From: a virus
IMG/VR virus record: IMGVR_UViG_3300045988_034373
Span: 96,001 to 160,000 of that record
Direction: 5' to 3' (one strand)
Length of the DNA: 64,000 bases
Shown here piece by piece: positions 9,444 through 48,498 of the stretch. Below the pieces are notes generated by a model. The model saw only the letters and a program-made list of their open reading frames with translations, was not told where the DNA came from and searched no databases. Both the position numbers and the translations under genes were made by a program. Positions within the stretch are counted from its first letter, which is position 1. Each line of letters opens with the position of its first letter.

Positions 9444-9449
9444 AAGCTG

Positions 9450-9722: not shown

Positions 9723-9728
9723 GAAAGC

Positions 9729-10739: not shown

Positions 10740-10789
10740 TTCTAGGTTCAAAAGATTACTTAGTCCTATCATAGTACCTAGAGAACTAT

Positions 10790-12241: not shown

Positions 12242-12242
12242 T

Positions 12243-13159: not shown

Positions 13160-13329
13160 AAGAATACTTCAATAATAAGAATCTGACTGATAAGGAAAGA
13201 TTTGAAGTCTTGAGGTTACATTTTACTAGTCTATTCCTACAACATCCTAAGATGCTCGAAGTTCTATCTTATAAGGATATAGTACTGAAAGCTAAAGAAT
13301 TTACCAAAGAATATCTAAAGCATGAATAA
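13147..13329 (+). CDS. hypothetical protein
   Basis: 60-aa ORF overlapping both neighbours. Confidence 0.45.
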   Translation: MDKVEEYFNNKNLTDKERFEVLRLHFTSLFLQHPKMLEVLSYKDIVLKAKEFTKEYLKHE

Positions 13330-13832: not shown

Positions 13833-13952
13833 TGACCCTTCATTGGATAGAGCACTTCTATTAAGGAAGCTAGCATCTCTCAGACTAAAAGAGTATGATT
13901 AGTATTGAAGAGTATGAGTATTTAAAACATTTAATAAGAAAGGAGAACGAAA

Positions 13953-14729: not shown

Positions 14730-14761
14730 TTTGGTAATACTGCTTATAATGCTTATATTTG
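14730..14761 (+). promoter_or_regulatory. Bacteroidota-type promoter (-33 TTTG / -7 TAnnTTTG)
   Basis: TTTG (14730-14733), a 20-nt spacer, then TATATTTG (14754-14761). It sits about 40 nt upstream of the ATG at 14801, in the largest intergenic region of the window. Confidence 0.5.
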
Positions 14762-14800
14762 CAGAAATTAAGTGGTTAAACTGTTTAAACGTATTAATTT

Positions 14801-15115
14801 ATGAAAATCGAAGAGAAATTTAAAAAATTCCAACAAGGTGGTGCTGCACCTCAGCCAGGAGCTGAACAAGCAGGAGGAGCACCAGCCGAGGGAGCACCAG
14901 CAGAAGGTGGTGCACCTGCTGAGGGTGGACAAGACCCAATGCAACAGATTCTACAAGTAGCTGCTCAGGCAGTTCGGACACAGAATTGTGAAGCTGCGAT
15001 GGCTGTGTGTCAAGCCCTAATGCAAATCGCTCAAGGTGGTGCTGCTCAGGAACAAGCTCCTCAAGAGGAACCAACTTTTGCAAGGAAAGGTGCTAGACTA
15101 GTAAGAGTAAGATAA
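14801..15115 (+). CDS. small Ala/Gly/Pro/Gln-rich protein with N-terminal KFQQGG motif
   Basis: 104-aa ORF, visibly more GC-rich than its surroundings. It is flanked by the promoter above and the terminator below. Confidence 0.65.
   Translation: MKIEEKFKKFQQGGAAPQPGAEQAGGAPAEGAPAEGGAPAEGGQDPMQQILQVAAQAVRTQNCEAAMAVCQALMQIAQGGAAQEQAPQEEPTFARKGARLVRVR
14876..14929 (+). repeat. imperfect tandem coding repeat (G)APAEG x3
   Basis: gga gca cca gcc gag / gga gca cca gca gaa ggt / ggt gca cct gct gag ggt gga, translating to GAPAEGAPAEGGAPAEGG. Confidence 0.8.
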
Positions 15116-15134
15116 TTAGTCAACAAGGTAAGAA

Positions 15135-15166
15135 GGGGCGTATATTAATTATATGCTCCTTTTTTG
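15135..15166 (+). terminator. intrinsic terminator
   Basis: GGGGCGTATA / TATATGCTCC stem (10 bp including 2 G-U pairs), a 5-nt loop, then TTTTTT. Confidence 0.6.
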
Positions 15167-15179
15167 TTATACATAGTAT

Positions 15180-18100
15180 ATGTCACAAGTAATAAGAAAA
15201 TTTGAGAACTCTGGTAAGATAGAACAATCTAAGCCAGAACTATTCGAGAGAAGTGGCGTTGGTAAGTACAATAAGGCTGATTTAGTTGCTGGACTATATA
15301 GGAACATAGATACCTATATAAAGAATAATAATCTTAGCGGAGACAAAGCAGTTTCATTTAGGAACTCTGCTAACCAGTTTATTAAAGGTATTGAGAGTGG
15401 AACTATTAGTATGAATGGTGATGGTACATTCTCTGATGCAACAGGTAGTATGGCTAGTTCAGGAAAGTTTGATAAGAACTGGATAGGACGTAAGAAGGAC
15501 ACTACAAATAATGCCTTTAATTTAGTTGGTGACTATGCACTAGACTACATCAATCAGATGCAACAATACACTGAGCCAGCAGCTAAACCTAAAGAGAAGT
15601 TCAATACCAACAACTTCTTAACTAAAGAGATTTCTAAAAGATGGTATGGTGGTAACGATATAGATTTCGGTAACTGGTTCAAGAACAGAGGTGAGCAAGA
15701 CCGTAATGCACTACTTGGAGAAATCTTCAATAATGCAGACTATAATCAACTATACCAAGATTATGATTGGACTGACACTGGAATTAACAGTGCAGAAGAT
15801 TTAGCTAATCGCGGAAGAGCATTTAGTACAGCCATTTCTAATAATACATTAGATAATGATGACTATAATACCTTTGCTACATTAGGTGGTAGTGGTTTAG
15901 ATAAGTTCTTGAAGGAGACTTCTATGGAAGCGGCTCCAACACCAGAGCAGGACAAAATGAAGACATGGGAAGCTGAGGCTAGAGCAGCTGGGGCAACCAC
16001 TCCAGAAGCAATCGCTGCATTTGTAAAAGGTAAACAACAGGATGAAGAGGCTACTAACCATGCTATCATTGAACAACAAGCCAAGAGAGATAGTAAGATG
16101 GAGAGGGACGCTTTCTTCAATGATTATGCAGTCAAAAATCCATTCAAAGAGACTATTCAATCAGGATATACTCCTAGCTCTGTGTCATATAAGCCAGAAG
16201 ACTTTGATAAGACTATAAGGGATTTCTATAATAACAATATTGACCAATACCTAAACGATAACCTATCTAGAGATTGGTTTAGGGCTGGTAACACTCAGCA
16301 CATTGCTAATCACATGGATTATCTGATTAATCATCTAAAGGTGAATCTTCCAGATGCAGGTGATGGGTTTGTGGCAATTCCTTCCACATTTGATTACAAC
16401 AATTACACTACAATGGTGTATAATCCAACAACTAGACAATATAAAGAGTCGTCTATGTTGGTAAATGATGCCCTAAGACGTCTTGCAGACGTTCATTATG
16501 ATAGTACTCGTACACCTAAGAGAGAGAATGGTGGTGTGCTTTATATGCAATTTGGAGGAACGTATAGTGCTGGGGCTAACTACAGTAACTATCAACAACA
16601 AAGGGCGCAAGAGAAGAAGACTAAGGAAGAGGAAACCGTCAAGCAGAAAGCTGAATCTAAGGGAAGAACTGTTGAAGAACAACAAATAGCTGATAGAAAG
16701 CCTGGAAGTATTACTAGTGGTGATTGGACTGGTGCTGACTATACTAGACTAGCATCTATAGTTGCAGACATTGGTTCTATTGGTGCTGCCTATGTTCCTG
16801 TATATGGTACAGCTGTATCAGCTGGATTAGGTATAGGTAGTTCTTTAGCTAATTATGGTGCTGACCTGTCAGAAAATGGATTTAAGTTGGGTGACTTAGG
16901 TGGATTAGCTATGAATCTAGGTTTAGATGCAGTAGGTCTAATTCCTGGACTAGGTACAGCAGCAAAGGGCAGTAAGATGCTCAAGACAGCTGTTAAATAT
17001 ATACCTAAAACATTATCCTTATTAGCGGCTTACAACTATACTGGTCCAGCTATAGAGTCTATGAAGAAAGCTATGTCTTCTGATGCTGAACTTACAGTGG
17101 ATGACTGGAGAAATATAGCAGAAGGATTTAAACTTGTACTTCAAGGAGGTAAAGGAATCAAGAGAGGCTACCAAGCTAAGAACCTAAAGAAAGACTTAGC
17201 AACTGGCAACAAGGTTCTTACTACATTAGGGGGTAAGGAGGTATCTGTAACTCCCGCTGAACTATCCGAAATCCGTTCTTATAGGAGGATTGAAGACCAA
17301 CAAGCTGCGCTGCAGTTATTAAAGAAGGATGATAACCTACAACTCGCTGGAGATTTAAATAAGAGGTGGTTCAATCCATCCCGTTATCTTCCCAACTCTA
17401 ATATTAGAGATGAATATGACTTTAATAAGACTGTAAAGAAGAGAACCTCTCAAGGCATAATAGAAGTGCCTAGAGTGTACAGTAACTCAGATAAATATAT
17501 TGCAGCTACCATGCAACGTAGTACTCCTCAAATTCCAGGAATTGATGAGTTGTCAGTAAAATATAACGACTGGAAGTATGGGGTTAAAAAGCCTAAAGCA
17601 AAAGCTAAAGGAAGTAAGACCTCTGATACAAAACCTTTACTAGCTCTTCCAGCCCCAGGTCAAACTCACAGAGTATTTACTATGGGTGGGGGACAACCTA
17701 GAGTACCTCAAGATGTAACTAACTCTTCTAATCTTAGAAAGCCAGGAAGCTATACTGATAGAGCTGTTCCAGTAGGAGGTACCCCAGTACAATCTCCTGA
17801 TGCTAATGCAGTTAGAGCAGTTAATACTATCAACTCTATATTAGAGCCATTTGTTCCTAAATCTAAGAACTTACCTGCTGTTATTCCTGCATCAAGAAAT
17901 GCTGAAAAGGTAGTAGCCTCTCAGACTGTACAGCCCAGTCAAAGATTGGACCAGTTCATTGAGGGGCAAATTCCAGGCAGAAGACAGTATGGTAGGCAGA
18001 GAGCTAAAACTGAGAGAGAATACAGAGATGTATTCCACCCAGCAGCTGAACGAGAGTACAACCAAGTATGGGATGAAGCTGTTAGAGGTAGAAAAGACTT

Positions 18101-19970
18101 TGGATATGAGGAAGTATTCCCTAAGAGAAGTCCATATGCACCCCCAACTCCTACAGAGGTGTATATAGTACCAGAGGGAGCTATGAAAGACCCTAACGCA
18201 AGGTATCTATGGGAGCTTATTAATAAAAAACCTAATACTGCACATATTAAAAGAGATAGCCAACCTCATAAAGTTAAGTCTAAGAAGAAGAAAACTTCAA
18301 AGGATGATAAAGTCACTAAGAAGGCTGAGGGAGGAGTAGTTCAATTTCTACAAGATGGTAAGACTGTAGGTAGAATCAAAGCTAAAGATATGTCTGGTTG
18401 GGACAGAGCACAGGCTTTAGCTAACTATGATTGGATTGCTGATTATGATAGATGGGCATCACAACACGAAGGTCCAGATGATGCTACTGAGTCTTATATA
18501 ATATCATTCAATGGTGGTGAAGATATATATGACCAATTAACATCTAAGACTGGAGATTACTTCGGAGGTAAGTACAATTATTCAGTACAAGACCCATTAG
18601 CTAAACATAGACAGATTACTTTTAGAGGTACTAATCAAGGCTTTGATGATTTAATCAGAAAGGGTATTGTAGGTTATGGTACTACAGAAGGTAATTCTGG
18701 ATTTGATATATATGCTGGTGATAGAACTGGTAATAGAACACTTGCAAGAGGACTATCCGCAGAGGATGTAGCTCGCTTTAACAAGCAGTTAGCAACGAGA
18801 GGAATGGAACTCTATGATAAGGGCAATGGTGCTTATAGGTTAAGAAGATTACAACAAAAACCTACTGAATTACCAGAGGTTGTTGTAACTGCTGATGCAC
18901 CTAAAGCTCCTACGGCTACTAACCCTTCAGCTATTAATCCAGCTGCATCTAAGAAAGGTAAAGGCTTCAATCTTGGTGTAATGCCAGAAGATGTTATCGC
19001 GTTAGGTAGAATGGTAGGTGGATTAGCAGCTAATAACAAGGCAGCTAAATTATATAAGGAAGGTCTAAAACCAACTTTATTAGACACATTTGAGAATACT
19101 GTTCCACTACAAGGTAACTTCCAAGCAGTTACTAATGCTGAACAACAAGCAGGCAATTTAGAATCTGTAGCTGCAAGACCTAGAACTTCTGATGCTTCAT
19201 TGCAATTAGCAGGAGAGTTAGAAGCTAGTGATAGAGCGGGTCAAGCTAGATTCCAAGGTGGTCTACAGGATGCAGAAATGTTCTATAAGACCAGAATGTT
19301 AGGACAGCAAGAATCCGATGCAGCTAAGGCAAGAAGAGTTGATGTGGCTAATAGGAATAGGGCTTCAATGAATCAGATTGATGCAGCTAAGAAGCAAATT
19401 GATGCAGCTAGAGTTACATCTAATTATCAGAATGTTATTGCTCCTTACTTAGCTGGAGTTGAGAACCAATTCGCTCAGAAGAGAGCTATGAATCAACAGT
19501 TAGACATGGAAGAAGCTCAGAGAGAGGCTGAAAGGACTTATTCTCCAGAGTTTGATAGACTAACTAATGATTACAATACAGCCTATAAAGCTTATGGTGC
19601 TGCAAATAAGAATGATTACACTGGCTGGGAGACATCTAACGAGTATAAGTCGTTAATAAATAGAAGAAAGTCCCTTAACGATAATGTATCTCAATTCCTA
19701 TTGGATAGGAGAAGAGGAATTATGGGTTCTCCATATATGTTCCAAGTTAAGAGGAACTCTTCTACCAAGACTCCATATGTTAAGTCTGGAGGTAAGCTAA
19801 GTGCAGCTGACAGAGAGAAGTTACAAAGAGCAAGAGATTTTAATAAGAGATTGCTAGAGGACAATAAGCAGTTCCACAAAGATATTATGGAATCTAAGAG
19901 AGAACATAACAAGTTAATAATGTCTATGTCTTCTCTAACTTCTGAGTTAATAAAGAAAGCAATGTCATGA
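15180..19970 (+). CDS. giant virion-block protein (1596 aa), putative ejected/internal protein
   Basis: Uninterrupted 4.8-kb ORF. It has an N-terminal RKFENSG, a Gly-rich hydrophobic segment (IGSIGAAYVPVYGTAVSAGLGIGSSLANYG...GLIPGLGTAAKG) and a long C-terminal helical/coiled-coil-looking region. No enzymatic motif was seen. Confidence 0.8.
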   Translation: MSQVIRKFENSGKIEQSKPELFERSGVGKYNKADLVAGLYRNIDTYIKNNNLSGDKAVSFRNSANQFIKGIESGTISMNGDGTFSDATGSMASSGKFDKNWIGRKKDTTNNAFNLVGDYALDYINQMQQYTEPAAKPKEKFNTNNFLTKEISKRWYGGNDIDFGNWFKNRGEQDRNALLGEIFNNADYNQLYQDYDWTDTGINSAEDLANRGRAFSTAISNNTLDNDDYNTFATLGGSGLDKFLKETSMEAAPTPEQDKMKTWEAEARAAGATTPEAIAAFVKGKQQDEEATNHAIIEQQAKRDSKMERDAFFNDYAVKNPFKETIQSGYTPSSVSYKPEDFDKTIRDFYNNNIDQYLNDNLSRDWFRAGNTQHIANHMDYLINHLKVNLPDAGDGFVAIPSTFDYNNYTTMVYNPTTRQYKESSMLVNDALRRLADVHYDSTRTPKRENGGVLYMQFGGTYSAGANYSNYQQQRAQEKKTKEEETVKQKAESKGRTVEEQQIADRKPGSITSGDWTGADYTRLASIVADIGSIGAAYVPVYGTAVSAGLGIGSSLANYGADLSENGFKLGDLGGLAMNLGLDAVGLIPGLGTAAKGSKMLKTAVKYIPKTLSLLAAYNYTGPAIESMKKAMSSDAELTVDDWRNIAEGFKLVLQGGKGIKRGYQAKNLKKDLATGNKVLTTLGGKEVSVTPAELSEIRSYRRIEDQQAALQLLKKDDNLQLAGDLNKRWFNPSRYLPNSNIRDEYDFNKTVKKRTSQGIIEVPRVYSNSDKYIAATMQRSTPQIPGIDELSVKYNDWKYGVKKPKAKAKGSKTSDTKPLLALPAPGQTHRVFTMGGGQPRVPQDVTNSSNLRKPGSYTDRAVPVGGTPVQSPDANAVRAVNTINSILEPFVPKSKNLPAVIPASRNAEKVVASQTVQPSQRLDQFIEGQIPGRRQYGRQRAKTEREYRDVFHPAAEREYNQVWDEAVRGRKDFGYEEVFPKRSPYAPPTPTEVYIVPEGAMKDPNARYLWELINKKPNTAHIKRDSQPHKVKSKKKKTSKDDKVTKKAEGGVVQFLQDGKTVGRIKAKDMSGWDRAQALANYDWIADYDRWASQHEGPDDATESYIISFNGGEDIYDQLTSKTGDYFGGKYNYSVQDPLAKHRQITFRGTNQGFDDLIRKGIVGYGTTEGNSGFDIYAGDRTGNRTLARGLSAEDVARFNKQLATRGMELYDKGNGAYRLRRLQQKPTELPEVVVTADAPKAPTATNPSAINPAASKKGKGFNLGVMPEDVIALGRMVGGLAANNKAAKLYKEGLKPTLLDTFENTVPLQGNFQAVTNAEQQAGNLESVAARPRTSDASLQLAGELEASDRAGQARFQGGLQDAEMFYKTRMLGQQESDAAKARRVDVANRNRASMNQIDAAKKQIDAARVTSNYQNVIAPYLAGVENQFAQKRAMNQQLDMEEAQREAERTYSPEFDRLTNDYNTAYKAYGAANKNDYTGWETSNEYKSLINRRKSLNDNVSQFLLDRRRGIMGSPYMFQVKRNSSTKTPYVKSGGKLSAADREKLQRARDFNKRLLEDNKQFHKDIMESKREHNKLIMSMSSLTSELIKKAMS

Positions 19971-21781
19971 GAATAACTTCAAATATAGATAAGCTACAAC
20001 AGGGTGGAGGTATTCCACCCTTTGTTAGCTATACTAATGTTCCAAGACCTCAACCCACTGCCCCTTATAGTACATCAGATACTAAACAAGCAGCTGGAGA
20101 AGAATCAGAAGGAGGGTTTGGTTTACTAGATAAGAACATGGTGAAGATGCTTTATGAGAAGGGCTTACCAAGTGATGTGGAGCAATTCTTAGACCAATCT
20201 GGGTTGTTCTCTGAATCCATAATGTCTAATCCATTTGAAAAGACAAACGGAGCTGCTCAGTATAAAGCATTATTAAAGATATTACCTAAGATAGCTATGA
20301 ATAAGGAAGAGTACAATAGAGCTATACAAGAAGCTACTAAGAATAATGCTCTTAAAGAAACAGCTATTGATACAGATGGCAGAGTATTTGCCATTAGCCC
20401 AGACGGACAAGTTACTAAGAAATTTATAAGCCAGTTAGAGGAAGGGGAACAGACTCTAACAGTTGGACAAATGGCTGAGAATAGAGCCTATAGTCAAGGT
20501 TTGGCATTTAACAGTAATGCTATTACAGCTATTGCTAACAGTACAAGCATTGAGCAAATAAATAAGACTATATGGGAAGCGATTAAGAATTTAGGTTCCA
20601 ATACAAGAGCCAATGAATACTTTAGGTCTAAGGACGAAAGGAAAGCTAAGGCTGGAATTGACAAACTATTGGAAGAAGGAGCTGATGGTGTTTATAAGAT
20701 TAACTCTAAGTCTATAACCCAAGATGCTCAAGCTAAATATGCTTTAAACTATATATTATCAACATTACCATCTAATCAGAAGGTGTTATTACAGGATTAT
20801 GCAAGAAAGTCTGGATTAGATTTGAAGACTGGTCCACTACAAATTATCACTAGTATGATACAATCTGGTATTAGTTCTACAGAAGAAATGGGAGTTAGTT
20901 ATGACAAACAAGCTACCAATGGTGCTAATACTGATGCAAATGGTAATAAGAAGACTAGGGCATTTGATATTCCTATGATGATTGTAACTGGTGATGGTCT
21001 TCCTAAAGAGAATGCCAGAATTAGCTTTGGAAGTAATTATGCTATTGATGTACAAGCACAAAGATTGCCATTCATTCCAGGTAGTGATGGCAAGCCTATT
21101 GGTCCGACTTCCTTAATGGGGGCTTTAAGTGGTCAGTTAGGTAGTGTAGTTAATAAAGATGCTGTACACGTTGGTAACCAAAGACTTGATGCTACTAAGC
21201 TAAATCAACTATACTACGATGGTACTGGAGTGTCTACAATGGAGTTACCTTATAAGTTGGATGAGAATGGACAAGCAGTTCCAGACTTTGATGTTATAGG
21301 TGCTTATAAGGCAGCTGTAGATGCAATCAATAAGGAAGGTAAGGATGTTACTAAGGCTCAAGTAAATCAAATATTCCAAGAACGAGGATTGAATAGATAT
21401 TTTAATGAAGATGGAAGTTTAAATAGGGATAACTTTATGAGGTTTGCTGGTATATCAGTTATTGGCGATGATGAAACCTTTGAACACCCTGATGATAACT
21501 CCGACTTCTTTATGCCTATTACTGATAATAGGTTGACAGCACAGATAAGTGCAACACTAGGTACTAAGTCAAACCCTATGGATATGGGAGACCTATACAG
21601 AACTATTGCTTATGTACCTATTTATGACTCTCCGAGTCTAGCAGGTGCAGCATCTGGTAACTTCTCATGGATTAAGGATGAGGGGGCTATGATGGAAATA
21701 GCAAAAGAACAGCAACTCCGTAACGCTAGACAGGCATATAACAACAATATAACTAAAAGTCAATTATTAAATGGACAATAA
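19967..21781 (+). CDS. virion-block protein (604 aa), function unknown
   Basis: ATGA overlap with the upstream gene. N-terminal DKLQQGGG motif. Confidence 0.75.
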   Translation: MRITSNIDKLQQGGGIPPFVSYTNVPRPQPTAPYSTSDTKQAAGEESEGGFGLLDKNMVKMLYEKGLPSDVEQFLDQSGLFSESIMSNPFEKTNGAAQYKALLKILPKIAMNKEEYNRAIQEATKNNALKETAIDTDGRVFAISPDGQVTKKFISQLEEGEQTLTVGQMAENRAYSQGLAFNSNAITAIANSTSIEQINKTIWEAIKNLGSNTRANEYFRSKDERKAKAGIDKLLEEGADGVYKINSKSITQDAQAKYALNYILSTLPSNQKVLLQDYARKSGLDLKTGPLQIITSMIQSGISSTEEMGVSYDKQATNGANTDANGNKKTRAFDIPMMIVTGDGLPKENARISFGSNYAIDVQAQRLPFIPGSDGKPIGPTSLMGALSGQLGSVVNKDAVHVGNQRLDATKLNQLYYDGTGVSTMELPYKLDENGQAVPDFDVIGAYKAAVDAINKEGKDVTKAQVNQIFQERGLNRYFNEDGSLNRDNFMRFAGISVIGDDETFEHPDDNSDFFMPITDNRLTAQISATLGTKSNPMDMGDLYRTIAYVPIYDSPSLAGAASGNFSWIKDEGAMMEIAKEQQLRNARQAYNNNITKSQLLNGQ

Positions 21782-30461: not shown

Positions 30462-30471
30462 ACAAAGAATT

Positions 30472-40008: not shown

Positions 40009-40999
40009 GAACTGTACTTCTACATTGATAATTGGGGGGCTGGAATTTAAAGTCCAGTCTCCCAACATCAATGGGAATCCTCCAATTAAAGACATTATAC
40101 AGAACATAATTAAAGTACATGGTTCTGAAATTTCTAAAGCATTATCTGACCCAAAAGGTACGTATGAAGTACTTAACATCAATGATATATCACATCTAAG
40201 AGGTAATGCTACATTTAAAGATATTACTGAACACCTAAACAGTTTAGGCAGACAGTACATACCAATGAGAGATAGTTTAAGGGTATTAATATCCAAACTA
40301 AACAAAATTGTTCCAGAGTCTGAACAGAACATTCTTTGGGTTGCTTCACCCGTAACACTGAACGATGTAAAAGTACCTAGTGTAAATGTTAGTACTAACG
40401 GAGATTTAGTTATTTTAGACTCCAACAACCTTAATAAGGTATATAACACACTAAGAGAGTATTTCTATGCTAAGACTATTAATACTCCTGAAAAGATTAA
40501 CCAAATCCTAGCTTTCATAGGAAGTATTGGTAAGGCAACTGATAAAATGAAGTTAAAGTCTGATGTATGGATGGCTAATCTACAATCTAAGTTTACTGAG
40601 ATGAGAAAGAATCCTGCAACGGCACTACACTATATTGTTAGTGATGATATTGTGAACGAATTAGTTGACCTATCTGGAATGAGGTCAGAACTTAATACCT
40701 TACTTAGAACACTAAGCAATGTTCAACTAAATGAGGGTAAGGGTAGACAGTGGTGGTTAGAGTGGGACGGTAATGCTGGAACCTATACTAATAGGAATGG
40801 TCAGCAATTTAGGTTCAACTTTAAAGAAATGGACACTACTATTACAGAATACCTAAAAGAGAAAGGTATTGAGGCAAATGAAGAGGAAATTAAAGCTACA
40901 AAGGCTGTCCTATTAAGTGGAATATCACAAGGACATCCATTGTCAAATGATGAGATATACGATTTATGGGACGAATTTACTAGAAAAGGTTGTGAGTAA
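39998..40999 (+). CDS. hypothetical protein (333 aa)
   Basis: The ORF overlaps the RNAP end by 11 nt. No motif recognised. Confidence 0.65.
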   Translation: MSAKNCTSTLIIGGLEFKVQSPNINGNPPIKDIIQNIIKVHGSEISKALSDPKGTYEVLNINDISHLRGNATFKDITEHLNSLGRQYIPMRDSLRVLISKLNKIVPESEQNILWVASPVTLNDVKVPSVNVSTNGDLVILDSNNLNKVYNTLREYFYAKTINTPEKINQILAFIGSIGKATDKMKLKSDVWMANLQSKFTEMRKNPATALHYIVSDDIVNELVDLSGMRSELNTLLRTLSNVQLNEGKGRQWWLEWDGNAGTYTNRNGQQFRFNFKEMDTTITEYLKEKGIEANEEEIKATKAVLLSGISQGHPLSNDEIYDLWDEFTRKGCE

Positions 41000-42648
41000 T
41001 GGCTTGTATTAATCATAATGATATAACATATAAAACACTTCTAGAACTTTCTGGATTAACCCAGTTAGAACTTGATGCAAAGGTAAGGAAGACACTGGAG
41101 ACTACTGGGGAATACCCATTCATCGAGCAAGTAGTGTCTTCTGATACAATTCCCGCATTAGTAAAGAAGTATAAGTTGGTAAAGTCTGGCGATAGGTATG
41201 TTGCTAAAGATGCTGACTTAGAGGGAGTGGATGCCCCTTATCTAAATAGCATCTATAGAGATTTAGAGATAACAATAACTCCTCTATTCGATGGAGAGTC
41301 TTTAATAGACATTAAGAAACGTGCTACTATAAATAGAGATTTAGAAGTAGAAGAGGATTATGTTGGACCATACACTGAACCCAATAGCAATATATTTCCT
41401 CAACCTATTCAGGTTATTAATGGGAATTATATCTATCAGCATGATGGTAACTATTACATATCAAAACACAAAGTTGGAAGTTATACTGCATTGAGTAACC
41501 TACCTAGAACTAAGAATCTAAAGACAGCTTATTCTAAAGCTACTCCTGTAAATACTAAGTATGAGGTTAATAGGGATGTTCTTAGATTCATATCTGACTA
41601 TAGTAATCTATTATCTGCAGGGCAGAATGCTATATACAATACCAATTCAGAACTTCCACCAATTATATCATATTATGGCAATTTTAACTATCCTAAGTTC
41701 AAAGTTGATACAACTCTTAAAGGCAAGTATGACATTAGTGAAGAAGGTACTATCCTACTAAATCCAAATAAGATTGGTACAGAACCTAAGGCATTAGAAA
41801 GAGCTATCCTTGAGGCTGAGGGGTTCTATAGTGAGGAGGAGATACTTGAATCACTAGACAGACTCACTAATCCGATTAAAGTGGAAACATTAAAGGTAGG
41901 TAATAACCAATATCTACTAAGGTCTACTAATAAGGATAACAAACTTAGCAATTATTATCCAGAGCTTTCTAATGGTAATGTAAGGATTAACAAACTTGAA
42001 GCACTGTTAGATAGATTAACTGACTTATATGGAGTTAAATTCAATAGGGTTACAAGTTCCGAATTAAGGCTTGGAGGGTTTAAAGATATTATTCCAGATG
42101 CTACCAGAGTTAATGCCTTTATATTAAACGGAGAAATCTACATCAATACTGATAATGCTAGTGACGATGCACCTATACATGAGTTATCTCATATGTTGCT
42201 AGGCTCATTAAAGTCTACCGACTATGACCTATATTCTGCATTAGTAAACTCAGTGGAGAGTTTAGATGACTATGATTCTAGGTTAGAAGAGTTCCCCAAT
42301 AGAGCTAGAATGGATGCTAATGAGGAGATATTCGTAGACCTGTTTGCCAGACACTTTACAGAGAATTTGGAATTACCAGTTGATGCTAATCTAATGGATA
42401 GGGCAGAATATGAAATTAAGAGAAATATTGACTCAGCTATCTTCCCTAATGAAAGTACAACTAAAGTTAGTCTAAATAGTATTAGTGGTAAATCATTCTC
42501 TGAAATCATGGACTTATTTGGAACATCTATTAATGAAACCACAATAGCTAATGCCTTTAATGGTAACGAATCAGGAACTAACAGACGACTAGCTAATATT
42601 AAAGAAGATTTATTAAAACAAGGATTATTAAAAGAGTATTGTGAATAA
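40999..42648 (+). CDS. protein with HExxH zinc-metallopeptidase-type motif (549 aa)
   Basis: DDAPIHELSHMLLG (HELSH at nt 42178-42192). TAATG overlap with the upstream gene. Confidence 0.6.
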   Translation: MACINHNDITYKTLLELSGLTQLELDAKVRKTLETTGEYPFIEQVVSSDTIPALVKKYKLVKSGDRYVAKDADLEGVDAPYLNSIYRDLEITITPLFDGESLIDIKKRATINRDLEVEEDYVGPYTEPNSNIFPQPIQVINGNYIYQHDGNYYISKHKVGSYTALSNLPRTKNLKTAYSKATPVNTKYEVNRDVLRFISDYSNLLSAGQNAIYNTNSELPPIISYYGNFNYPKFKVDTTLKGKYDISEEGTILLNPNKIGTEPKALERAILEAEGFYSEEEILESLDRLTNPIKVETLKVGNNQYLLRSTNKDNKLSNYYPELSNGNVRINKLEALLDRLTDLYGVKFNRVTSSELRLGGFKDIIPDATRVNAFILNGEIYINTDNASDDAPIHELSHMLLGSLKSTDYDLYSALVNSVESLDDYDSRLEEFPNRARMDANEEIFVDLFARHFTENLELPVDANLMDRAEYEIKRNIDSAIFPNESTTKVSLNSISGKSFSEIMDLFGTSINETTIANAFNGNESGTNRRLANIKEDLLKQGLLKEYCE

Positions 42649-45600
42649 TGGCAAAGTGCGGATATACTCTATTAGGAAGGTCATTTGGCTCTGAGTTAGA
42701 ACTGAACAACTTCCTACTTAACAATAAACATAGTATAGACCTTGGTAGAATATCTGATATAGTATTTAGTCTTAATAGCAAGAAAGACGAAGTAGTATCT
42801 ATATTAGATGGTAAACTATCATGGGCTACTAAAATCCAGAGTATTAAGAGAAATCCTAATTCATTCCTGGATGATGAAGATATAGACCCAGAATCGGTAA
42901 AGCCATATAAAGGTGTTACATCTGCAATAAAGTTATTTAGACAAGCAGATGGAGTAACCAGATTTGTGCCTGAGTTCAAAATAGAGAACTTCAAAGAGAA
43001 GTGCTTTGAAAGGTGGGGCAAGGATGGATTTAGCGCAATGGAAGCTAAATTGGTTGGTAAAGAGCCAGGTGTTCCAGTAAAAGAGAATGAAATGGAAGAA
43101 GCTTTCAAAGCACTAACTACTAAGTGGGACTTACTTGGTAAAGTTGGTACTTCACTTCATAAAGTAGCTGAGTTATTTTGGAAGGGTGAAAGTTTATCAG
43201 CTATAGTGCAGGATGATGAAGTTAAGAACTATCTTGACCCAGTAATGGCTTCTCATATGTATAGTAACATGGAAATACTGAGAGACCAATTAATTAAGCT
43301 ACATGGTAACGGAGACCCCAATAGTGTAAAATTCTACCCAGAGTACGTAGTTGCTGGAGACACTCAAGCCACTGACGATAATGGTAGTCCTATCAAACTA
43401 CTTGGTATTATTGACTTGTTGGTAGTTGATTCTGATGGGCAAGTGCACATATATGACTACAAGACTTCTGACAAAGCTCACGTTGATTTTGATAGTACTA
43501 AGAAATTAACATTCGATTATCAGTTAGCTGTTTATAGGCAGTTATTAGAGAGCTATGGATTACCAGTAAGTAGAGCTATGATGGGTATTATCCCACTATC
43601 AATGCAAGACTTTGATGGAACTACTGGTAACTTCTCCAACATTACTGCACCTATTACTACTGTAAATGGTGTGAAAGAAATCAACATTGATTATAGAGAT
43701 AGGAACCCAAGGCTATCCTATGATAGTGCATCTGCCTTTGTAACCAATAACGTTGAAATGGTTATGCCTGTAGAGCCTGTTGAAGATATAGTTACTAAGG
43801 ACTTTGTTGAGCATATGAGCACTGGGTTTGCTAAGCTATTCCCAGGATATAAGTTCAACAGAGAACTAAATGAGGCTACATTAGAAGCTCTTAAAAGGGA
43901 TGTGAGATATAATGCATCTACTGGTAAGTGGACTCTTCCAGACTTAAAGAATCCAGGTAAGACTCTAACATTTGATACTCAAGCAGAGGCGTATAAGGCT
44001 CTTGAAAGTTATCACGAATCTTTGTTAAGCTCTAAGACAAGAGCGACTGAAAGGTTGATTGGTAACATTAGAACTGCTATTAATACTGGTAATACTAACT
44101 TCTTGCCCCTATCTAATCGTAAGATTAAGGGACACAGTGCAGGTTGGTTTATTAAGGAATGTAGTAGGTACTGTAACTCTGAATGGAAGGTAATGGATGT
44201 TCCAGAATTAACATCTTTGGGTATAATGTTGCTATTTAATAAGAGGGCTAAGTACTTTGACGTGTTAGTGCTTGATAACACCCCATTAAAGACTCAACTT
44301 AAATTCAAGAAGGGTACTTCCGTTCTTGGTGAATATGCTTCTAACGTAGAATTAGAGCAAAGAGGTATTCCAGCATTGGAGGGCATTGTGGGTAATGTTG
44401 ACCTAATGAAAGCTATGCTAGCTTTAAATGAACTGCCAGACTTATTCAGAGAAGGTAAGTTTAAATTAGGTGAGATTAGAGTTCTTAACCAAAAGGACGA
44501 AACTGGTATGCACACTAGTGCTTGGCAGTTAATGCAGAACTTTAATGAGCTTACTAAGAACGGTAGAGCTGGTGTGGATAATAACTTTACTACTGGTAAA
44601 ATACAGTTCTTAGAGAATTATCAATTAGCATACTACAATATGATTCAGTTCTGTGCCTTAGGTAAAGAGCAAAGTAAATTGAATAATGTGCTATCAGAGT
44701 TTGAGACTAATCCAATTATTCTTGACCATTCTATAGAGAATCTGATAAAGATGAAGAAGATGTTAGAGCAGGAATATCTTAACCTAACTGAAACTAAGAC
44801 TACAGACTTCTCTTCACCTCCTGGAATTGTATATGGCTATCTACTTAAAGCTATTAAGGATTTAAGAGGTATGCACTATGTACAAGAAGTTAGGGATGGT
44901 AACAAAATAGTTCTACTAACTGATAACCCAGATGTGATGGCATCAGCTAACCTTAGAAATATGTATAAAGTAACCACTGACGGTCTTGTACATCTAAGAA
45001 CTAATCTTAATAACTTTGCTGCTGAAATGCGTACTGCTATGGAGAAGTTCTGGAAAGCTAAGGGATATTCTACTGAAAGAAGAAATCTTATTGGTGACCA
45101 ACTATCACTATTTAAGAATATGTTTGTTACTGATAGAGATGGCAAGATTGATAGTAGAATGAGGGTTAAGAGTCCATTTGTTGATAGAACATTAGATGCT
45201 GCTGAGAAGGAGTTCCTAACATTCTGGCTGGATAAACTAAACAGATACAGGTATCAAAATATGTCTGAATCTGATTTAGAGGAAATGAGGCTAGACCCTG
45301 ACAGTGAATACTATAATGTGCCATTAATGGAAGCTAGTTCAGCTACTAAGGTACAGGAAGGTGGTAAGGGATTAATATCCTGGTTTAAGAGAAAGGTAGA
45401 CCAGTTTAGAAATCCTAAGGAATGGGCTGATAGACTAATCACTGGTGCTTTAGACTCAAAGCATAATGAGCAGTTAAAGGAGGATATGGAGAAGTATGAA
45501 ATGATTGATATGTTCGAGTATAGCGATAATGCAACATCAAGAAGTAATGCTTTAGAAGAACATGATACTGTGTTCTTTGAAACTAACTTGAATGACATCA

Positions 45601-47267
45601 TCTATTCATATGCCTTTGTTAAAGAAAGGAAGAAAGCATACGATGAAATATTGCCAGTGGTTAAAGCTACTATGGTTGATATGCTTATGGAAGCTAACTT
45701 CCAGAACTTGGACATTAAAAATACTATAGGGTACACTAAGGACTATGTAAAGAACAAAATCATTGGTCAAACATTAGTCCCAGAGAACCTTAAAGGATTA
45801 GCTCATTATATGGGTATGGTTAGAAACTTTACCACTACTGCCGCCTTAGGTTTCTCTCCTAAATCTGGTCTATTCCAGATGATGGAAGGCTTCTGGAAGA
45901 ATGCAGGTAAGGCAATTATTAGACCTATGGGTACTAATCAATTTGGATGGGATGAAGTACAGCAGGCTATGAAATGGGTAGCTGGTGATATGAAAGACCA
46001 TTTCAAGATAGTATCGTTAGGAGAGCTAATCAACGAACAGTATGCCATTAATGACTTTGACTCTAACGTATATGATAAAAGGCTTAGAGGTGAGCCTGGC
46101 TTGATTAACTTCCAGGGTAAGATGCTGTGGACTACCTCTGCACCTGACTACTTTAATAGAATGACTCTATTTGTAGCTCAGATGATAAAGGATGGTTGCA
46201 TGGATGCTTATTCAATGAAAGGTAATAAGTTAGTCTATGATTGGAAGAAAGATAAGAGATTCTCTGCATATGCAGCTGGTAATAAAGCTGATTCTAAGTA
46301 TGGTTATCAGAAGGCTTTATATGAAGCTATGATAGACCAATTTAGAAATGAAGGTTGGAAGAATGATAAAGGTCAGCCAATCAGCTATGATGATGATTTA
46401 CCAATGGCTTATACTAATAAGGAGGCTCAGAGTTTGAAATCATTTGCAGACCAAACTTATGGTTATTACTCACATGAGACTCAAATGATGTTAAAGAGCT
46501 ACTTCCTCGGTGCTCAGTATATGCAGTTTAGAACTTATTGGTCAGCTTTGAAGAATAGGTACTTCCTAAAAGGTGGTGTGTATTCACAAGGTAATTTCCA
46601 ACAACTTGTAGACGAGGATGGTAATAAAGTTTATAAGAAACTTGTAACTATTAATGGTGTACAACAGTATGTTCAGACTACTGAGAATACAGGTGAGCCA
46701 TTTATGGTGTGGAGAGGTAACTGGCAGGAAGGTATATTCATGTCATTTAGGGATGGATTTAAGGAAATGCTTGAAGGGTTCCGTGATGATGGATTGTCTG
46801 GAGTAGTAAAAGGTGCTAAAGAATTTTGGAACACCAATAACAGTGAACTTAGAAGGGTAAGGCACGCCAATTTACGGCAATTCGGATATGATATGGCTCT
46901 TTGGGGACTAATTGGTAGCCTACTTGGATACTTCTTAACCCAACTATTAAAGGAGCAACAGAAGGCTGATAAGGGTCGAGATTTAAGTTGGGGGGATGTA
47001 ATGCTGAGGGATGCAGAAAGTATCTTCGTTTCCTCACTAATTACCTCAACTGACGATTTAGGTGCTTTTAAATCAATGCTATCACCTCTTACAGATTGGA
47101 CTCCGCCCTCATTCAGAATGTTAACTAATATTTGGAATGATGGTTGTGCAGTAATTACTGGAGATAAGGATTTTAGTAAAGCTGTCATAAATAACATTGG
47201 TGTACTAAGACAAACTAGAAACTTCTGGTACTATGCTAGTGAGGCAGTTGAAAGTGCAATTGAATAA
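42648..47267 (+). CDS. giant protein (1539 aa) with an N-terminal PD-(D/E)xK (RecB/Cas4/lambda-Exo-like) nuclease domain
   Basis: GTSLHKVAELFW (nt 43146-43181), then IIDLLVVDSDGQVHIYDYKTS (D256 at 43413; D270-x-K272 at 43455-43463). A hydrophobic segment (MALWGLIGSLLGYFLTQLL) lies near the C-terminus. Confidence 0.75.
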   Translation: MAKCGYTLLGRSFGSELELNNFLLNNKHSIDLGRISDIVFSLNSKKDEVVSILDGKLSWATKIQSIKRNPNSFLDDEDIDPESVKPYKGVTSAIKLFRQADGVTRFVPEFKIENFKEKCFERWGKDGFSAMEAKLVGKEPGVPVKENEMEEAFKALTTKWDLLGKVGTSLHKVAELFWKGESLSAIVQDDEVKNYLDPVMASHMYSNMEILRDQLIKLHGNGDPNSVKFYPEYVVAGDTQATDDNGSPIKLLGIIDLLVVDSDGQVHIYDYKTSDKAHVDFDSTKKLTFDYQLAVYRQLLESYGLPVSRAMMGIIPLSMQDFDGTTGNFSNITAPITTVNGVKEINIDYRDRNPRLSYDSASAFVTNNVEMVMPVEPVEDIVTKDFVEHMSTGFAKLFPGYKFNRELNEATLEALKRDVRYNASTGKWTLPDLKNPGKTLTFDTQAEAYKALESYHESLLSSKTRATERLIGNIRTAINTGNTNFLPLSNRKIKGHSAGWFIKECSRYCNSEWKVMDVPELTSLGIMLLFNKRAKYFDVLVLDNTPLKTQLKFKKGTSVLGEYASNVELEQRGIPALEGIVGNVDLMKAMLALNELPDLFREGKFKLGEIRVLNQKDETGMHTSAWQLMQNFNELTKNGRAGVDNNFTTGKIQFLENYQLAYYNMIQFCALGKEQSKLNNVLSEFETNPIILDHSIENLIKMKKMLEQEYLNLTETKTTDFSSPPGIVYGYLLKAIKDLRGMHYVQEVRDGNKIVLLTDNPDVMASANLRNMYKVTTDGLVHLRTNLNNFAAEMRTAMEKFWKAKGYSTERRNLIGDQLSLFKNMFVTDRDGKIDSRMRVKSPFVDRTLDAAEKEFLTFWLDKLNRYRYQNMSESDLEEMRLDPDSEYYNVPLMEASSATKVQEGGKGLISWFKRKVDQFRNPKEWADRLITGALDSKHNEQLKEDMEKYEMIDMFEYSDNATSRSNALEEHDTVFFETNLNDIIYSYAFVKERKKAYDEILPVVKATMVDMLMEANFQNLDIKNTIGYTKDYVKNKIIGQTLVPENLKGLAHYMGMVRNFTTTAALGFSPKSGLFQMMEGFWKNAGKAIIRPMGTNQFGWDEVQQAMKWVAGDMKDHFKIVSLGELINEQYAINDFDSNVYDKRLRGEPGLINFQGKMLWTTSAPDYFNRMTLFVAQMIKDGCMDAYSMKGNKLVYDWKKDKRFSAYAAGNKADSKYGYQKALYEAMIDQFRNEGWKNDKGQPISYDDDLPMAYTNKEAQSLKSFADQTYGYYSHETQMMLKSYFLGAQYMQFRTYWSALKNRYFLKGGVYSQGNFQQLVDEDGNKVYKKLVTINGVQQYVQTTENTGEPFMVWRGNWQEGIFMSFRDGFKEMLEGFRDDGLSGVVKGAKEFWNTNNSELRRVRHANLRQFGYDMALWGLIGSLLGYFLTQLLKEQQKADKGRDLSWGDVMLRDAESIFVSSLITSTDDLGAFKSMLSPLTDWTPPSFRMLTNIWNDGCAVITGDKDFSKAVINNIGVLRQTRNFWYYASEAVESAIE

Positions 47268-47878
47268 TGATTATTGGAATTTCTGGAAAGAAACAATGTG
47301 GTAAGGATACCGTATGCAAAATTATTAAGGCATTAGATATATGGAATAGGTACGGAGATATGCATACATTTGTAAAGATGTTACTTAAGAGTCCAAGTCC
47401 TTTAGGCAGTATATGGTACAAGCACGCATATGCTGATAAGCTTAAGCAAGTCTTAGCTATTATACTTAACATAAATGTTGCTGCATTCGAGGATAATATA
47501 TTTAAGATGTCTAACAGTGAGATAGTTAAGCCAGAAGGAGGATATTATACTAATAGAGAACTTCTACAGAGATTTGGAACTGAAGTAGGTAGAAGTATAT
47601 CTCCAACATTGTGGGTAGATGCTTTATTCATGGGCTACAGTGAGGACGACCACTGGATTATTCCAGATGTTAGGTTTCCATCTGAAGCTGAAGCTATTAA
47701 GGAAAGGGGTGGTATAATTATTAGAGTAGATAGGGAAACCTTCTCTCGTGATACTCATCCATCTGAAGTAGCATTGGATAATTATGAAGGTTTTGATTAC
47801 AGAATAGATAACAATAACGATATAGAACATTTAATAGATAAGGTAAAAGAGATAATGTCTCAACTAAACCTTATATAA
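47267..47878 (+). CDS. deoxynucleoside monophosphate kinase-like P-loop kinase
   Basis: IGISGKKQCGKDT P-loop at the N-terminus. RELLQRFGTEVGR and IIPDVRFPSEAEAIKERGG match the phage dNMP kinase pattern. Confidence 0.7.
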   Translation: MIIGISGKKQCGKDTVCKIIKALDIWNRYGDMHTFVKMLLKSPSPLGSIWYKHAYADKLKQVLAIILNINVAAFEDNIFKMSNSEIVKPEGGYYTNRELLQRFGTEVGRSISPTLWVDALFMGYSEDDHWIIPDVRFPSEAEAIKERGGIIIRVDRETFSRDTHPSEVALDNYEGFDYRIDNNNDIEHLIDKVKEIMSQLNLI

Positions 47879-47886
47879 AGCAATTA

Positions 47887-47932
47887 GGGCAACACTGGTA
47901 GGTAATTCTACTGGTGTTGCCCTTATTTTTTT
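47887..47932 (+). terminator. intrinsic terminator at the convergent junction (favours + strand transcripts)
   Basis: GGGCAACACTGGTAG / CTACTGGTGTTGCCC forms a 15-bp stem with 2 G-U pairs on the + RNA, which become A-C mismatches on the - RNA. It has a 6-nt loop followed by TTATTTTTTT. Confidence 0.7.
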
Positions 47933-47934: not shown

Positions 47935-48498
47935 TTAGTCTTTCTTCTCTACATATTCAGGTTCTCTTTCATCCTGCTGCTTTAGATAAGTGAACATTCT
48001 CTTACCTAACGCCTTATAGTCTTTCTCACTCTTTGATTTAGAAGCCCTCTTAGCCATTCTGATTAGAGTTCTTGTATTCTTTCTACTAAAGATTCTCTCT
48101 CCTCCTTCTAATTCCATTTGAGTGGAACCATCAGGAGCAATTACCTTCATTTTGGGTAACTCTTCATCCTCTTCAATATCAAGTTCATCTCCCTCTTTAA
48201 TACCAGAGCCTTGATTAACTTCTAATACAAATTGTACACCATCTTCCTCAGCTATATTCTCATTCTCAGGTTCTCCCTGATATACTGATATTACTTCCAT
48301 ATCTTCATTAATGAAAATGATGTCTAGTGGAATTTTAGTATCTTTCATCCAGAATCCTACAGTCTGAGGCTCCTCGAAGAAGAATAACATTCCTTCATCA
48401 TCTTTCATTTCTGTAACTCCTTGTAGACCTTTCATTCTTTCCTCTTCAGTCCTAGCACAAGTTACATTATACTCTCTGTCTCCTATTTCAATCTTCAT
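47935..48498 (-). CDS. DUF192-domain protein with a charged C-terminal extension
   Basis: ARTEEERMKGLQGV...EGMLFFFEEPQTVGFWMKDTKIPLDIIFINEDMEV matches the DUF192 (COG1430) pattern. Confidence 0.7.
   Translation of the reverse strand: MKIEIGDREYNVTCARTEEERMKGLQGVTEMKDDEGMLFFFEEPQTVGFWMKDTKIPLDIIFINEDMEVISVYQGEPENENIAEEDGVQFVLEVNQGSGIKEGDELDIEEDEELPKMKVIAPDGSTQMELEGGERIFSRKNTRTLIRMAKRASKSKSEKDYKALGKRMFTYLKQQDEREPEYVEKKD

Follow-up and report, generated by a model that had tools for sequence, protein, structure and literature searches.

Organization of the gene block

The 64,000-nucleotide stretch of viral DNA analyzed here, positions 96,001 to 160,000 of IMG/VR record IMGVR_UViG_3300045988_034373 (hereafter the window), contains a long block of co-oriented genes that encodes a giant RNA polymerase (RNAP) together with several other very large proteins. 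A sequence-only reading had proposed nine open reading frames (ORFs) for this block, and all nine were found on the plus strand with exactly those boundaries, abutting or overlapping by 1-11 nucleotides (nt). The block contains four conserved enzyme modules, shows homology to verified cargo proteins of other phages and occurs in partly fused forms in relatives. We consider it likely that it represents the virion cargo and early-transcription module of a divergent, Zeta-like crAss-type phage.

The first gene (14801-15115) encodes a protein of 104 amino acids (aa) with an N-terminal KFQQGG, a linker rich in Ala, Pro, Gly and Glu, a C-x6-C motif and a C-terminal EPTFARxGAxLVRVR. It is followed by two Cys-free proteins of 1596 aa (15180-19970) and 604 aa (19967-21781), which stand in the positions of cargo protein 1 (C1) and cargo protein 2 (C2), respectively; the former is a candidate ejection or channel protein and the latter has an N-terminal KLQQGGG. 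The next two genes encode giants, a 2896-aa protein with a superfamily 1 (SF1) helicase core (21771-30461) and the 3178-aa RNAP (30472-40008). Downstream of these are genes for a 333-aa protein (39998-40999), a 549-aa protein with a zincin-like domain (40999-42648), a 1539-aa giant combining a nuclease domain with a C-terminal region similar to gp49 and gp65 of other phages (42648-47267), and a deoxynucleoside monophosphate (dNMP) kinase of 203 aa (47267-47878).

A promoter candidate, TTTG-N20-TATATTTG (14730-14761, plus strand), lies 40 nt before the first ATG. TTTG-N20-TAnnTTTG is the Bacteroidota promoter consensus. In a pattern search the site at 14730 fitted this consensus exactly and was the sole intergenic match on the plus strand, and an identical motif was found at the equal 40-nt distance in the 185-kb relative L014. 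Scored as a sigma-70 site, the same sequence reached 9/12, and sites of this kind were not more numerous than in shuffled sequences. The host-type promoter suggested earlier thus stands as a Bacteroidota-type site retained in L014, while its sigma-70 match is weak and at chance level. Between promoter and ATG there is a palindromic 5'-untranslated element, GGTTAAACTGTTTAAAC (14776-14792, plus strand). A GTTAAAC(N1-3)GTTTAAAC palindrome also precedes the orthologous gene of ~100 aa in the relatives L013, L014 and L015 and could be an operator or an RNA structure. At the other end of the block, the terminator that had been proposed was recovered as a hairpin with a 17-bp stem (8 GC) and a T-run at 47886-47932, between two convergent gene sets.

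Phage identity and genomic setting

Four families were matched in the window above their curated cut-offs: the muzzle family PF25731 crAss_MUZ (2.4e-27), the tail ring 1 family PF24228 CrAss_Ring_1 (1.9e-7), the capsid family PF23898 Crass_capsid (1.1e-9) and PF25729. The presence of crassvirus muzzle, ring 1 and capsid families identifies a phage of the Crassvirales type, and a very divergent one. TerL and portal lie outside the window and, judged by traits alone, the phage fits the Zeta group: relatives have sizes of 145-190 kb, close branches use either TAG recoding or the standard code, a LAGLIDADG element occurs in the RNAP gene, and there are almost no homologues in GenBank. These traits are those given for the Zeta group by Yutin et al. 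2021 (PMC7886860).

Just two relatives were found among GenBank phages, MT835470 and MT835492, both of them unannotated, and a megablast search with 24 kb against GenBank phages gave no match. The major capsid protein (MCP) is 85% identical to that of MT835470 and 60% identical to that of MT835492, whereas RNAP identity is only ~30%. Gulyaeva et al. (10.1101/2021.06.01.446427) have already described this combination of well-conserved structural genes with a strongly diverged transcription module. Relatives from metagenomes include contigs of up to ~190 kb, some of which recode TAG as Gln, and a locus search with the helicase giant returned close relatives only, with 83-90% identity. The lineage is abundant, its protein clusters counting thousands of members in public metagenomes, and relatives are common in those from the gut.

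The genes upstream of the block (1-14417, plus strand) encode polynucleotide kinase, PolA, thymidylate synthase, phosphoesterases, NUDIX and related proteins. Downstream, the sign of the GC skew flips at ~48 kb, where the structural genes of the minus strand begin, convergent to the block. The first of the minus-strand features are a DUF192 protein (47935-48498; Pfam DUF192, 2.2e-26), a 454-aa protein starting with RYQWGG (48498-49862), which adjoins the muzzle gene, and the muzzle protein itself (49855-54546).

RNA polymerase

Two phages provide virion proteins with which the block can be compared. In crAss001, gp45, gp46, gp47, gp49 and gp50 were detected in virions by mass spectrometry (Bayfield et al. 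2023, PMC10172136). In phi14:2, the products of g065-g070 are annotated from tandem mass spectrometry (MS/MS); gp65 and gp67 are present in virions, and the three proteins gp65, gp66 and gp67 form one polyprotein in some phages (Drobysheva et al., 10.1101/2020.03.07.982082).

The 3178-aa protein aligned with crAss001 gp50 around the DFDVD motif of the latter in a BLASTP comparison (E=6e-8). A profile built from five RNAP sequences matched gp50 over ~340 columns (87%, 3.8e-6) and the crystallized gp66 of phi14:2 at residues 1293-1374 (57%, 1e-4), a segment that spans 1361-DFDID-1365. Pfam, PHROG and PDB sequence searches gave no match for this protein. Since its own DFDID (aa 2154-2158; 36931-36945), catalytic by alignment, stands in a context homologous to gp50 and gp66, the earlier call of a crAss-type RNAP is confirmed. 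In MT835470 the RNAP gene is split just after DxDxD by an insertion of ~1 kb (26444-27505 of that genome) with a LAGLIDADG homing-endonuclease ORF (m234), which is probably a group I intron. The RNAP gene of the window is uninterrupted at this site.

Helicase giant

The SF1 helicase core occupies aa 1440-1870 of the 2896-aa giant (26088-27380). Pfam families AAA_30 (5.9e-9), AAA_19 and Viral_helicase1 match at aa 1480-1626. Motifs I (GxxGxGKT), II (DE), III (GDxxQ), IV, V (QGxE) and VI (TxxxR) are invariant in 115 homologues of less than 70% identity; in a set of 36 sequences the invariant residues are G45, G48, G50, K51, D153, E154, G181, D182, Q185, R223, Q336, G337, E339, T375 and R379. The AlphaFold2 (AF2) model of aa 1440-1870 (pLDDT 89.4, pTM 0.87) has two RecA-like domains in SF1 topology. 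Foldseek gave 142 PDB matches at E<=1e-3 for this core, with RecD on top (8b1t_D, 1.7e-8) and further matches to the viral helicase 6jim and to UPF1, nsp13, RecD2, Dna2, Dda and a Bacteroides Pif1; RecD and the latter six reached probability 1.0. A PDB sequence search with the core found nothing. The SF1 helicase predicted by the sequence-only reading is therefore supported by Pfam, by motifs I-VI conserved in homologues and by the modelled fold. Its structural neighbours suggest a 5'->3' polarity.

More than 580 homologues of the helicase giant, 2600-3400 aa in length, were identified. Outside the helicase core, aa 255-346 show a weak likeness to crAss001 gp47 98-184 (E 1.5e-3, hhalign) and to phi14:2 gp67 172-206 (E 0.013, hhalign). 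The likeness to gp47 came with the family profile only, as pairwise BLASTP of the helicase giant against crAss001 gp47 and gp49 gave nothing. PHROG searches with the giants likewise gave nothing.

Zincin-like protein, nuclease giant and dNMP kinase

The zincin-like module makes up the C-terminal 215 aa of the 549-aa protein (aa ~330-549), with HELSH at 394-398 (42178-42192). It has 473 representatives at E<=1e-3, mostly proteins of ~350 aa; H394, E395, H398, D439, E442, E443 and C548 are invariant in 98 representatives, and H394, E395, H398, E442 and E443 also in a set of 138 sequences. The zincin-like HExxH...EE signature called earlier is thus invariant among homologues. A Pfam scan of the whole 549-aa protein found no family. 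The AF2 model of the domain (pLDDT 81) shows, in order, a helix, three strands, the HExxH helix and a Glu helix, and this order of elements is that of the metallopeptidase (MPTase) core described by Iyer et al. 2017 (PMC5512222). Matches of the model in BFVD were virion structural proteins of Bacteroidota podophages (2e-7 to 5e-4) and, more weakly, SprT-like, lethal-factor, IrrE-like and large polyvalent protein-associated domains. With the HExxH profile, the C-terminus of crAss001 gp47 aligned with its motifs co-linear at a non-significant E=0.029, which is suggestive of a link between the two.

The 1539-aa giant carries a PD-(D/E)xK domain of the RecB-like type at aa 165-303 (43140-43556), detected as Pfam PDDEXK_1 (PF12705) at 6.2e-10 and 39.9 bits against a cut-off of 22. 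PDDEXK_1 is present in 32 of 33 homologues of this giant, and the exonuclease family phrog_69 was matched too. E232, D256, D270-x-K272 and Q292-xxx-Y296, a RecB-family signature, are at least 90% conserved in 32 sequences. These catalytic residues, together with the Pfam match, bear out the earlier nuclease call, and the domain profile matched crAss001 gp47 at 1713-1867 (94%, 1.3e-7, hhalign). Further along the protein, a 32-sequence profile of aa 1053-1439 (45804-46964) matched crAss001 gp49 at 921-1237 (74.6%, E 2.6e-5, hhalign), and the C-terminal region also matched phi14:2 gp65 at 1180-1311 (E 1.5e-3, hhalign). The targets in these comparisons were single sequences, and they point with moderate strength to homology of the C-terminal body with gp49 and gp65. 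Here, too, the homology surfaced with family profiles only: pairwise BLASTP of the nuclease giant against gp47 and gp49 found nothing, as did a PDB sequence search with the nuclease N-terminus.

The helicase, nuclease and HExxH residues, on whose conservation in orthologues the sequence-only reading had made its case depend, are all kept. Since these motifs are conserved across hundreds of divergent homologues, the modules must be under selection. This bears on the idea that the role of the giants is in essence a structural one, as parts of an ejectosome or internal body, and that their enzyme-like motifs are non-catalytic relics. GenBank annotations of homologues as "virion structural protein" (Fpv1, phi14:2 g067) are in line with such a role, as is the fact that most of each giant lacks a recognizable domain. 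The SF1, RecB-like and zincin catalytic residues are nevertheless invariant in 30-140 divergent sequences with 24% mean column identity and, because of this, we regard relics as highly improbable.

The 333-aa protein has homologues in close relatives only and no Pfam or PHROG family. The dNMP kinase was correctly named (phrog_139, 1.4e-46; Pfam DNMK), but its place as an integral part of the block has to be given up: the MT835470 homologue lies on the opposite strand, and the protein has no terminal-Cys signature of the kind described below. Its sequence context indicates a co-transcribed passenger outside the cargo module.

Terminal cysteines

The five enzymatic proteins of the block, counting from the helicase giant to the nuclease giant, are almost Cys-free (0.07-0.6% Cys). 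The helicase giant, the first link of what may be a chain, has Cys 2895 of 2896 and no N-terminal Cys. The inner links carry a cysteine near both ends: Cys 3 and C-terminal Cys 3178 in the RNAP, Cys 6 and Cys 332 as the sole cysteines of the 333-aa protein, and only Cys 3 and Cys 548 in the 549-aa protein. The nuclease giant, as the last link, has Cys 4 and no C-terminal Cys. Cysteine is thus found at 8/8 junction termini and at 0/2 outer termini, compared with N-terminal cysteines in three and C-terminal cysteines in two of the 35 other window ORFs (1.16% Cys). The junction sites lie at 30456-30480, 39998-40008, 40990-41010 and 42640-42662 in the window, and further sites were noted in loci L002, L016-L018 and L020-L024.

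At every break between consecutive giants, the protein ahead of the break has a Cys among its ~10 final residues and the protein behind it has one at residue 3-6. This rule holds in ~14 genomes (the window, MT835470, L013-L015, crAss001, phi14:2, DAC15, cr4_1, cr7_1, crAss002, LMMB, cr50_1 and Fpv1). The first protein of a chain never has an N-terminal Cys and the last never has a C-terminal one. In crAss001, gp47 has only Cys 2339 of 2341, gp50 has Cys 5 and Cys 2404 of 2412, and gp49 has only Cys 5. In phi14:2, gp67 has only Cys 1797 of 1797, gp66 only Cys 3 and Cys 2179 of 2180, and gp65 only Cys 3, so that gp67, gp66 and gp65 together contain 4 Cys in 5,398 residues, all of them junctional. 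Larger samples of single families agree with this pattern: the last Cys is within 15 residues of the C-terminus in 114 of 118 helicase giants, none of which has an N-terminal Cys; all 32 of 32 nuclease giants have the N-terminal Cys only; and both terminal cysteines are found in 97 of 103 HExxH proteins of ~350 aa. Where modules are fused, the junction cysteines are absent.

Two other origins of the pattern were considered and rejected. Translational coupling does not account for it, as the junction DNA shares only the Cys codons and the rule holds across opposite strands in crAss001 and DAC15. A protease cleavage-site motif was dismissed on the ground that the cysteines are missing from fused forms. 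As a tentative model, we propose that the enzymatic cargo proteins may be joined head to tail via their terminal cysteines into one ordered chain, a possibility to which we give rather less than even weight. The C-terminal Cys of each protein would pair with the Cys at residue 3-6 of its successor, either in a disulfide or in a metal site common to both, and the window proteins would follow each other as helicase giant, RNAP, 333-aa protein, zincin protein and nuclease giant. The chain would then enter the particle and pass the tail as one string, to come apart into separate enzymes in the reducing cytoplasm. Disulfides are documented between other virion proteins of crAss001. If the links are real, they would account for the fixed-order packing and the expulsion of several proteins of 100-350 kDa through a narrow tail.

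The cysteines of cargo proteins are unmentioned in the paper of Bayfield et al. (PMC10172136) and in the preprint of Drobysheva et al. (10.1101/2020.03.07.982082), and the rule appears to be new to the literature. It may also prove useful to annotators as a simple aid for delimiting cargo proteins and correcting start sites. An example is the crAss002 RNAP gp33, for which an in-frame MSC start (L021, 17088-17190) fits the rule and resembles the MSCGNIK of LMMB; the annotated start is probably 32 codons too far upstream.

Proteins at the front of the block

The 104-aa protein is the best conserved of the block, with 50-75% identity to its counterparts in L013-L015, and has no Pfam or PHROG family. 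Orthologues of the 1596-aa and 604-aa proteins are present in MT835470 and L013-L015. In L013 and L015 the position of the 1596-aa orthologue after the muzzle gene is that of crAss001 gp45, and a Gly/Ala-rich hydrophobic segment at aa 520-600 of the window protein (16737-16979) resembles the transmembrane (TM) segment of gp45.

A further common feature was noted among these proteins. K-(F/Y/L)-Q-x-G-G occurs within the first ~15 residues of four Cys-poor proteins, the three at the front of the block (104, 1596 and 604 aa) and the 454-aa neighbour of the muzzle (motif sites 14801-14850, 15180-15220, 19967-20030 and, on the minus strand, 49820-49862). The motif is clearer in some orthologues, such as RKYQTGG in m1554 and QKFQEGG in L015, and giant 1 of LMMB starts with MDVLKFLQGG. 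The motif may serve as a signal for packaging or docking.

Synteny and recoding in relatives

In L013 and L015, a single strand carries in order the muzzle gene, one further gene, the DUF192 gene, a small gene, the genes in C1 and C2 position, and those of the helicase giant and the RNAP. This order after the muzzle is that of crAss001, in which muzzle gp44, C1 gp45, C2 gp46 and gp47 follow each other, with gp50 (RNAP) and gp49 on the other strand. In the window and in L014 the block is inverted relative to the muzzle and DUF192 genes and placed after metabolic genes. The module has thus moved between late structural and post-metabolic contexts within the lineage. In L013 and L015 the DUF192 (COG1430) protein directly follows the muzzle-adjacent gene and precedes the block; the text of the crAss001 atlas, as far as read, makes no mention of it.

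Yutin et al. 2021 (PMC7886860) report that TAG recoding affects mostly late genes. In L014, the first gene of the block is also the first in which TAG is recoded to Gln, and none of the five metabolic genes upstream shows such recoding. Neighbouring cargo genes of L014 (2993-18031 and 27307-28031) contain 4, 46, 11, 72 and 6 in-frame TAG codons, whereas the RNAP gene between them (18034-27303) contains 0, against 118 and 79 in its other frames. The window itself reads cleanly in the standard code, with 31 TAA, 8 TGA and 1 TAG among the stop codons of its 40 main ORFs, and this scarcity of TAG stops may mark a lineage prone to switch to TAG recoding. No tRNA or suppressor gene was found in the 64-kb window.

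Gene fusions

Several relatives combine the modules of the block in single polypeptides. The 4774-aa protein QOR58058.1 of cr50_1 (Suoliviridae, delta group), annotated as "DNA helicase" in GenBank, has HExxH at 1665, DFDID at 3154 and an AAA_30/PIF1 helicase at 4249-4448 (E 5e-21). Since these are one polypeptide, the helicase must travel with the RNAP there. In Fpv1, DYDID and HExxH occur together in a 4401-aa "virion structural protein", and in LMMB and crAss002 the RNAP is fused to a gp49-like part. GenBank also lists an "RNAP associated protein/zincin protease fusion protein" for LMMB. In P0282 and P0290 the HExxH module is fused to the nuclease giant. Taken as sequence evidence, these fusions are the strongest in-silico argument that helicase, zincin and nuclease travel with a packaged RNAP.

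Probable packaging of the block products

The sequence-only reading had suggested that the neighbours of the giant RNAP are virion cargo as well. The RNAP itself is confirmed, and the support for its neighbours is indirect, coming from cargo homology, fusions, position and the Cys signature. We infer packaging in this lineage, of the helicase and nuclease giants among others, from profile homology to gp47, gp49 and gp50 of crAss001 and to gp65 and gp66 of phi14:2, from the fusions of zincin, RNAP and helicase, from the position after the muzzle in relatives, and from TAG recoding of the late-gene type in relatives. The terminal-Cys signature adds to this, as it is common to virion proteins of phi14:2 and crAss001 and to the five proteins of the window.

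A number of findings weigh against a cargo role, and they concern first the front proteins. The 1596-aa protein did not match PF25725 (cargo protein 1) nor the 604-aa protein PF25712 (cargo protein 2) at E<=10, while crAss001 gp45 and gp46 match these families at 2e-66 and 6e-219. Profiles of five sequences each for the C1 and C2 positions gave no signal against gp45 and gp46 (hhalign E>=0.06) or against phi14:2 g068-g070. Membership of the two proteins in the cargo-1 and cargo-2 families was thus rejected for want of profile similarity, and their assignment is one of position alone. This agrees with the remark of Bayfield et al. 2023 (PMC10172136) that homologues of gp46 are missing from Zeta. 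With regard to the enzymes, Foldseek with the HExxH model against PDB gave nothing significant (best E 0.88), and the likeness of the helicase giant to gp47 (1.5e-3) and gp67 (0.013) appears weak. There is no Walker A and no SF1 helicase in gp47, gp49, gp50 or gp65-gp67, and therefore no helicase has yet been seen in a crassvirus virion. As to packaging, this lineage is known from its genes alone, and ~1.1 MDa of protein per copy set would have to fit in the capsid. The TAG-free RNAP gene of L014 hints at a different time of expression from its neighbours, and in the window the block runs in the direction of the replication and nucleotide-metabolism genes and against that of the structural genes.

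The last of these points, namely that the block directly follows the replication and nucleotide genes in the same orientation and ends in a dNMP kinase, would fit another arrangement, in which virions contain the RNAP and perhaps the front ejection proteins but no helicase, zincin or nuclease giant. These three would then be synthesized in the infected cell and serve in its cytoplasm as factors of transcription, recombination or replication whose genes are simply co-transcribed with that of the RNAP. Verified cargo of crAss001 and phi14:2 without a helicase domain is consistent with this, as is the name "transcription gene block" used in the literature (PMC7886860). Yet the nuclease and gp49-like modules have homologues among proteins detected in virions, Suoliviridae carry helicase and RNAP in one covalent polypeptide, and the block is co-directional with the muzzle gene in other relatives. 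The junction-Cys signature further ties five proteins to the RNAP, and the dNMP kinase is non-syntenic. We therefore find packaging of the RNAP without the giants around it quite unlikely, both as an account of the virion and as an account of what those giants do, and favor the cargo module.

Possible functions after the predicted injection

As a cargo module, the block would be transcribed late by host RNA polymerase from the Bacteroidota-type promoter, and its products would be loaded into capsid and tail lumen and leave the particle before the DNA does. The 104-, 1596- and 604-aa proteins, which share K-F/L-Q-x-G-G, would act in place of C1 and C2 and probably form a trans-envelope conduit. 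The enzymatic payload would consist of the helicase giant, the RNAP, the 333-aa protein, the zincin protein and the nuclease giant, with the RNAP transcribing early genes. In this model the RecD/Dda/Pif1-like helicase most likely provides a single-stranded template or translocates incoming DNA. The zincin module may mature or activate its partners or cut peptidoglycan, similar to the proposal that the zincin-like protease gp65 of phi14:2 may activate the RNAP or digest peptidoglycan (Drobysheva et al., 10.1101/2020.03.07.982082). The RecB-like nuclease could target host DNA or genome ends. Expression timing and every biochemical role in this scheme are predictions.

The helicase could be of particular mechanistic importance, because DNA has to be single-stranded or denatured to be transcribed in vitro by phi14:2 gp66 (10.1101/2020.03.07.982082). 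The window lineage has a complete SF1 helicase and a RecB-like nuclease in one module with an RNAP of the injected type, and this helicase is a candidate answer to the template problem of the RNAP.

Another possibility is that the giants are injected and that helicase, nuclease and zincin serve not as aids of the RNAP but as anti-defence or takeover effectors in the manner of "polyvalent proteins". Their functions would be degradation of host DNA, countering of restriction or CRISPR, and polyprotein processing. Packaged polyvalent proteins combine a zincin MPTase hub with helicases and nucleases, and the virion RNAP (vRNAP) of N4 is always fused to MPTase domains (PMC5512222). The large polyvalent protein-associated domains among the BFVD neighbours of the HExxH model would also be expected from such a role. 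The module evolves very fast, as conflict genes do (MCP 85% versus RNAP ~30% identity to MT835470), and modules are swapped between close relatives (Gulyaeva et al., 10.1101/2021.06.01.446427). Position and motifs are, on the other hand, conserved over long distances and in hundreds of homologues, which fits a core role better; the Suoliviridae helicase is fused directly C-terminal to the RNAP; and the RNAP requires a single-stranded template in vitro. On balance, an effector role of the injected enzymes seems to us somewhat unlikely, and we prefer enzymes that assist the RNAP.

Comparison with known systems

The enzymatic composition of the block had been thought to be undescribed, a claim that for the most part did not survive comparison with the literature. 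Packaged neighbours of the RNAP and the zincin have been published, a PDDEXK domain was noted in large proteins of the transcription block by Yutin et al. 2021 (PMC7886860), multi-enzyme "polyvalent proteins" packaged in the capsid are the general idea of Iyer et al. 2017 (PMC5512222), and the helicase fusion is annotated in GenBank. The SF1 helicase was not found discussed in the text of the literature consulted, the domains in the figure of the Zeta block in Yutin et al. 2021 not being readable.

A close likeness exists to crAss001. Both have the muzzle followed by two mid-size proteins and then giants, the same junction cysteines and homologous RNAPs; gp47 shares the PD-(D/E)xK match and has HExxH...EE near its C-terminus, and gp49 matches the C-terminal region of the 1539-aa protein. 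In the window, by contrast, nuclease and gp49-like part share one protein, and the zincin stands alone as the 549-aa protein. The window also has the 333-aa link and the SF1 helicase in addition, lacks detectable C1 and C2 homology, and carries the whole block on one strand, convergent with the muzzle gene. With phi14:2 the window shares a DFDID RNAP with giant neighbours; in phi14:2 the RNAP and the two giants that flank it are packaged, one of these giants has a zincin-like HExxH, and the junction-Cys pattern is perfect. It differs from phi14:2, where three proteins would form the chain against five in the window and Walker A is absent, and the sequences resemble each other only around the catalytic site of the RNAP and in the weak gp65 match.

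The cr50_1 protein combines HExxH, DFDID and SF1, ends with Cys 4773 of 4774 and is followed by a protein starting with MQC, in keeping with the cysteine rule. It is one polypeptide with the helicase C-terminal to the RNAP, whereas the helicase of the window is part of the giant preceding the RNAP. In concept, polyvalent proteins (PMC5512222) resemble the block as multi-enzyme proteins delivered with DNA, where they give transcription an early start and act against the host; a zincin-like MPTase is their commonest domain, and the HExxH model appears to have MPTase topology. In contrast to them, the window has an RNAP predicted to be of the two-barrel crAss/QDE-1 type (aligned at the DFDID region only), not a T7-like one, its set is split into separate proteins, and no packaging domain of the MuF or ArdC type was found. 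Each giant of the window has one recognizable enzymatic domain, and multi-domain polypeptides occur only in the fused relatives cr50_1, Fpv1 and P0282.

RecBCD, AddAB and Dna2 likewise pair an SF1, RecD-like motor with a RecB-family PD-(D/E)xK nuclease with QxxxY, and the helicase core of the window has RecD and Dna2 among its best structural matches. Unlike in these enzymes, helicase and nuclease of the window are on different giants with the RNAP between them, and joint action is not implied. Taken together, these comparisons identify the block as a divergent copy of the known crassvirus transcription and cargo module and not as a new kind of system.

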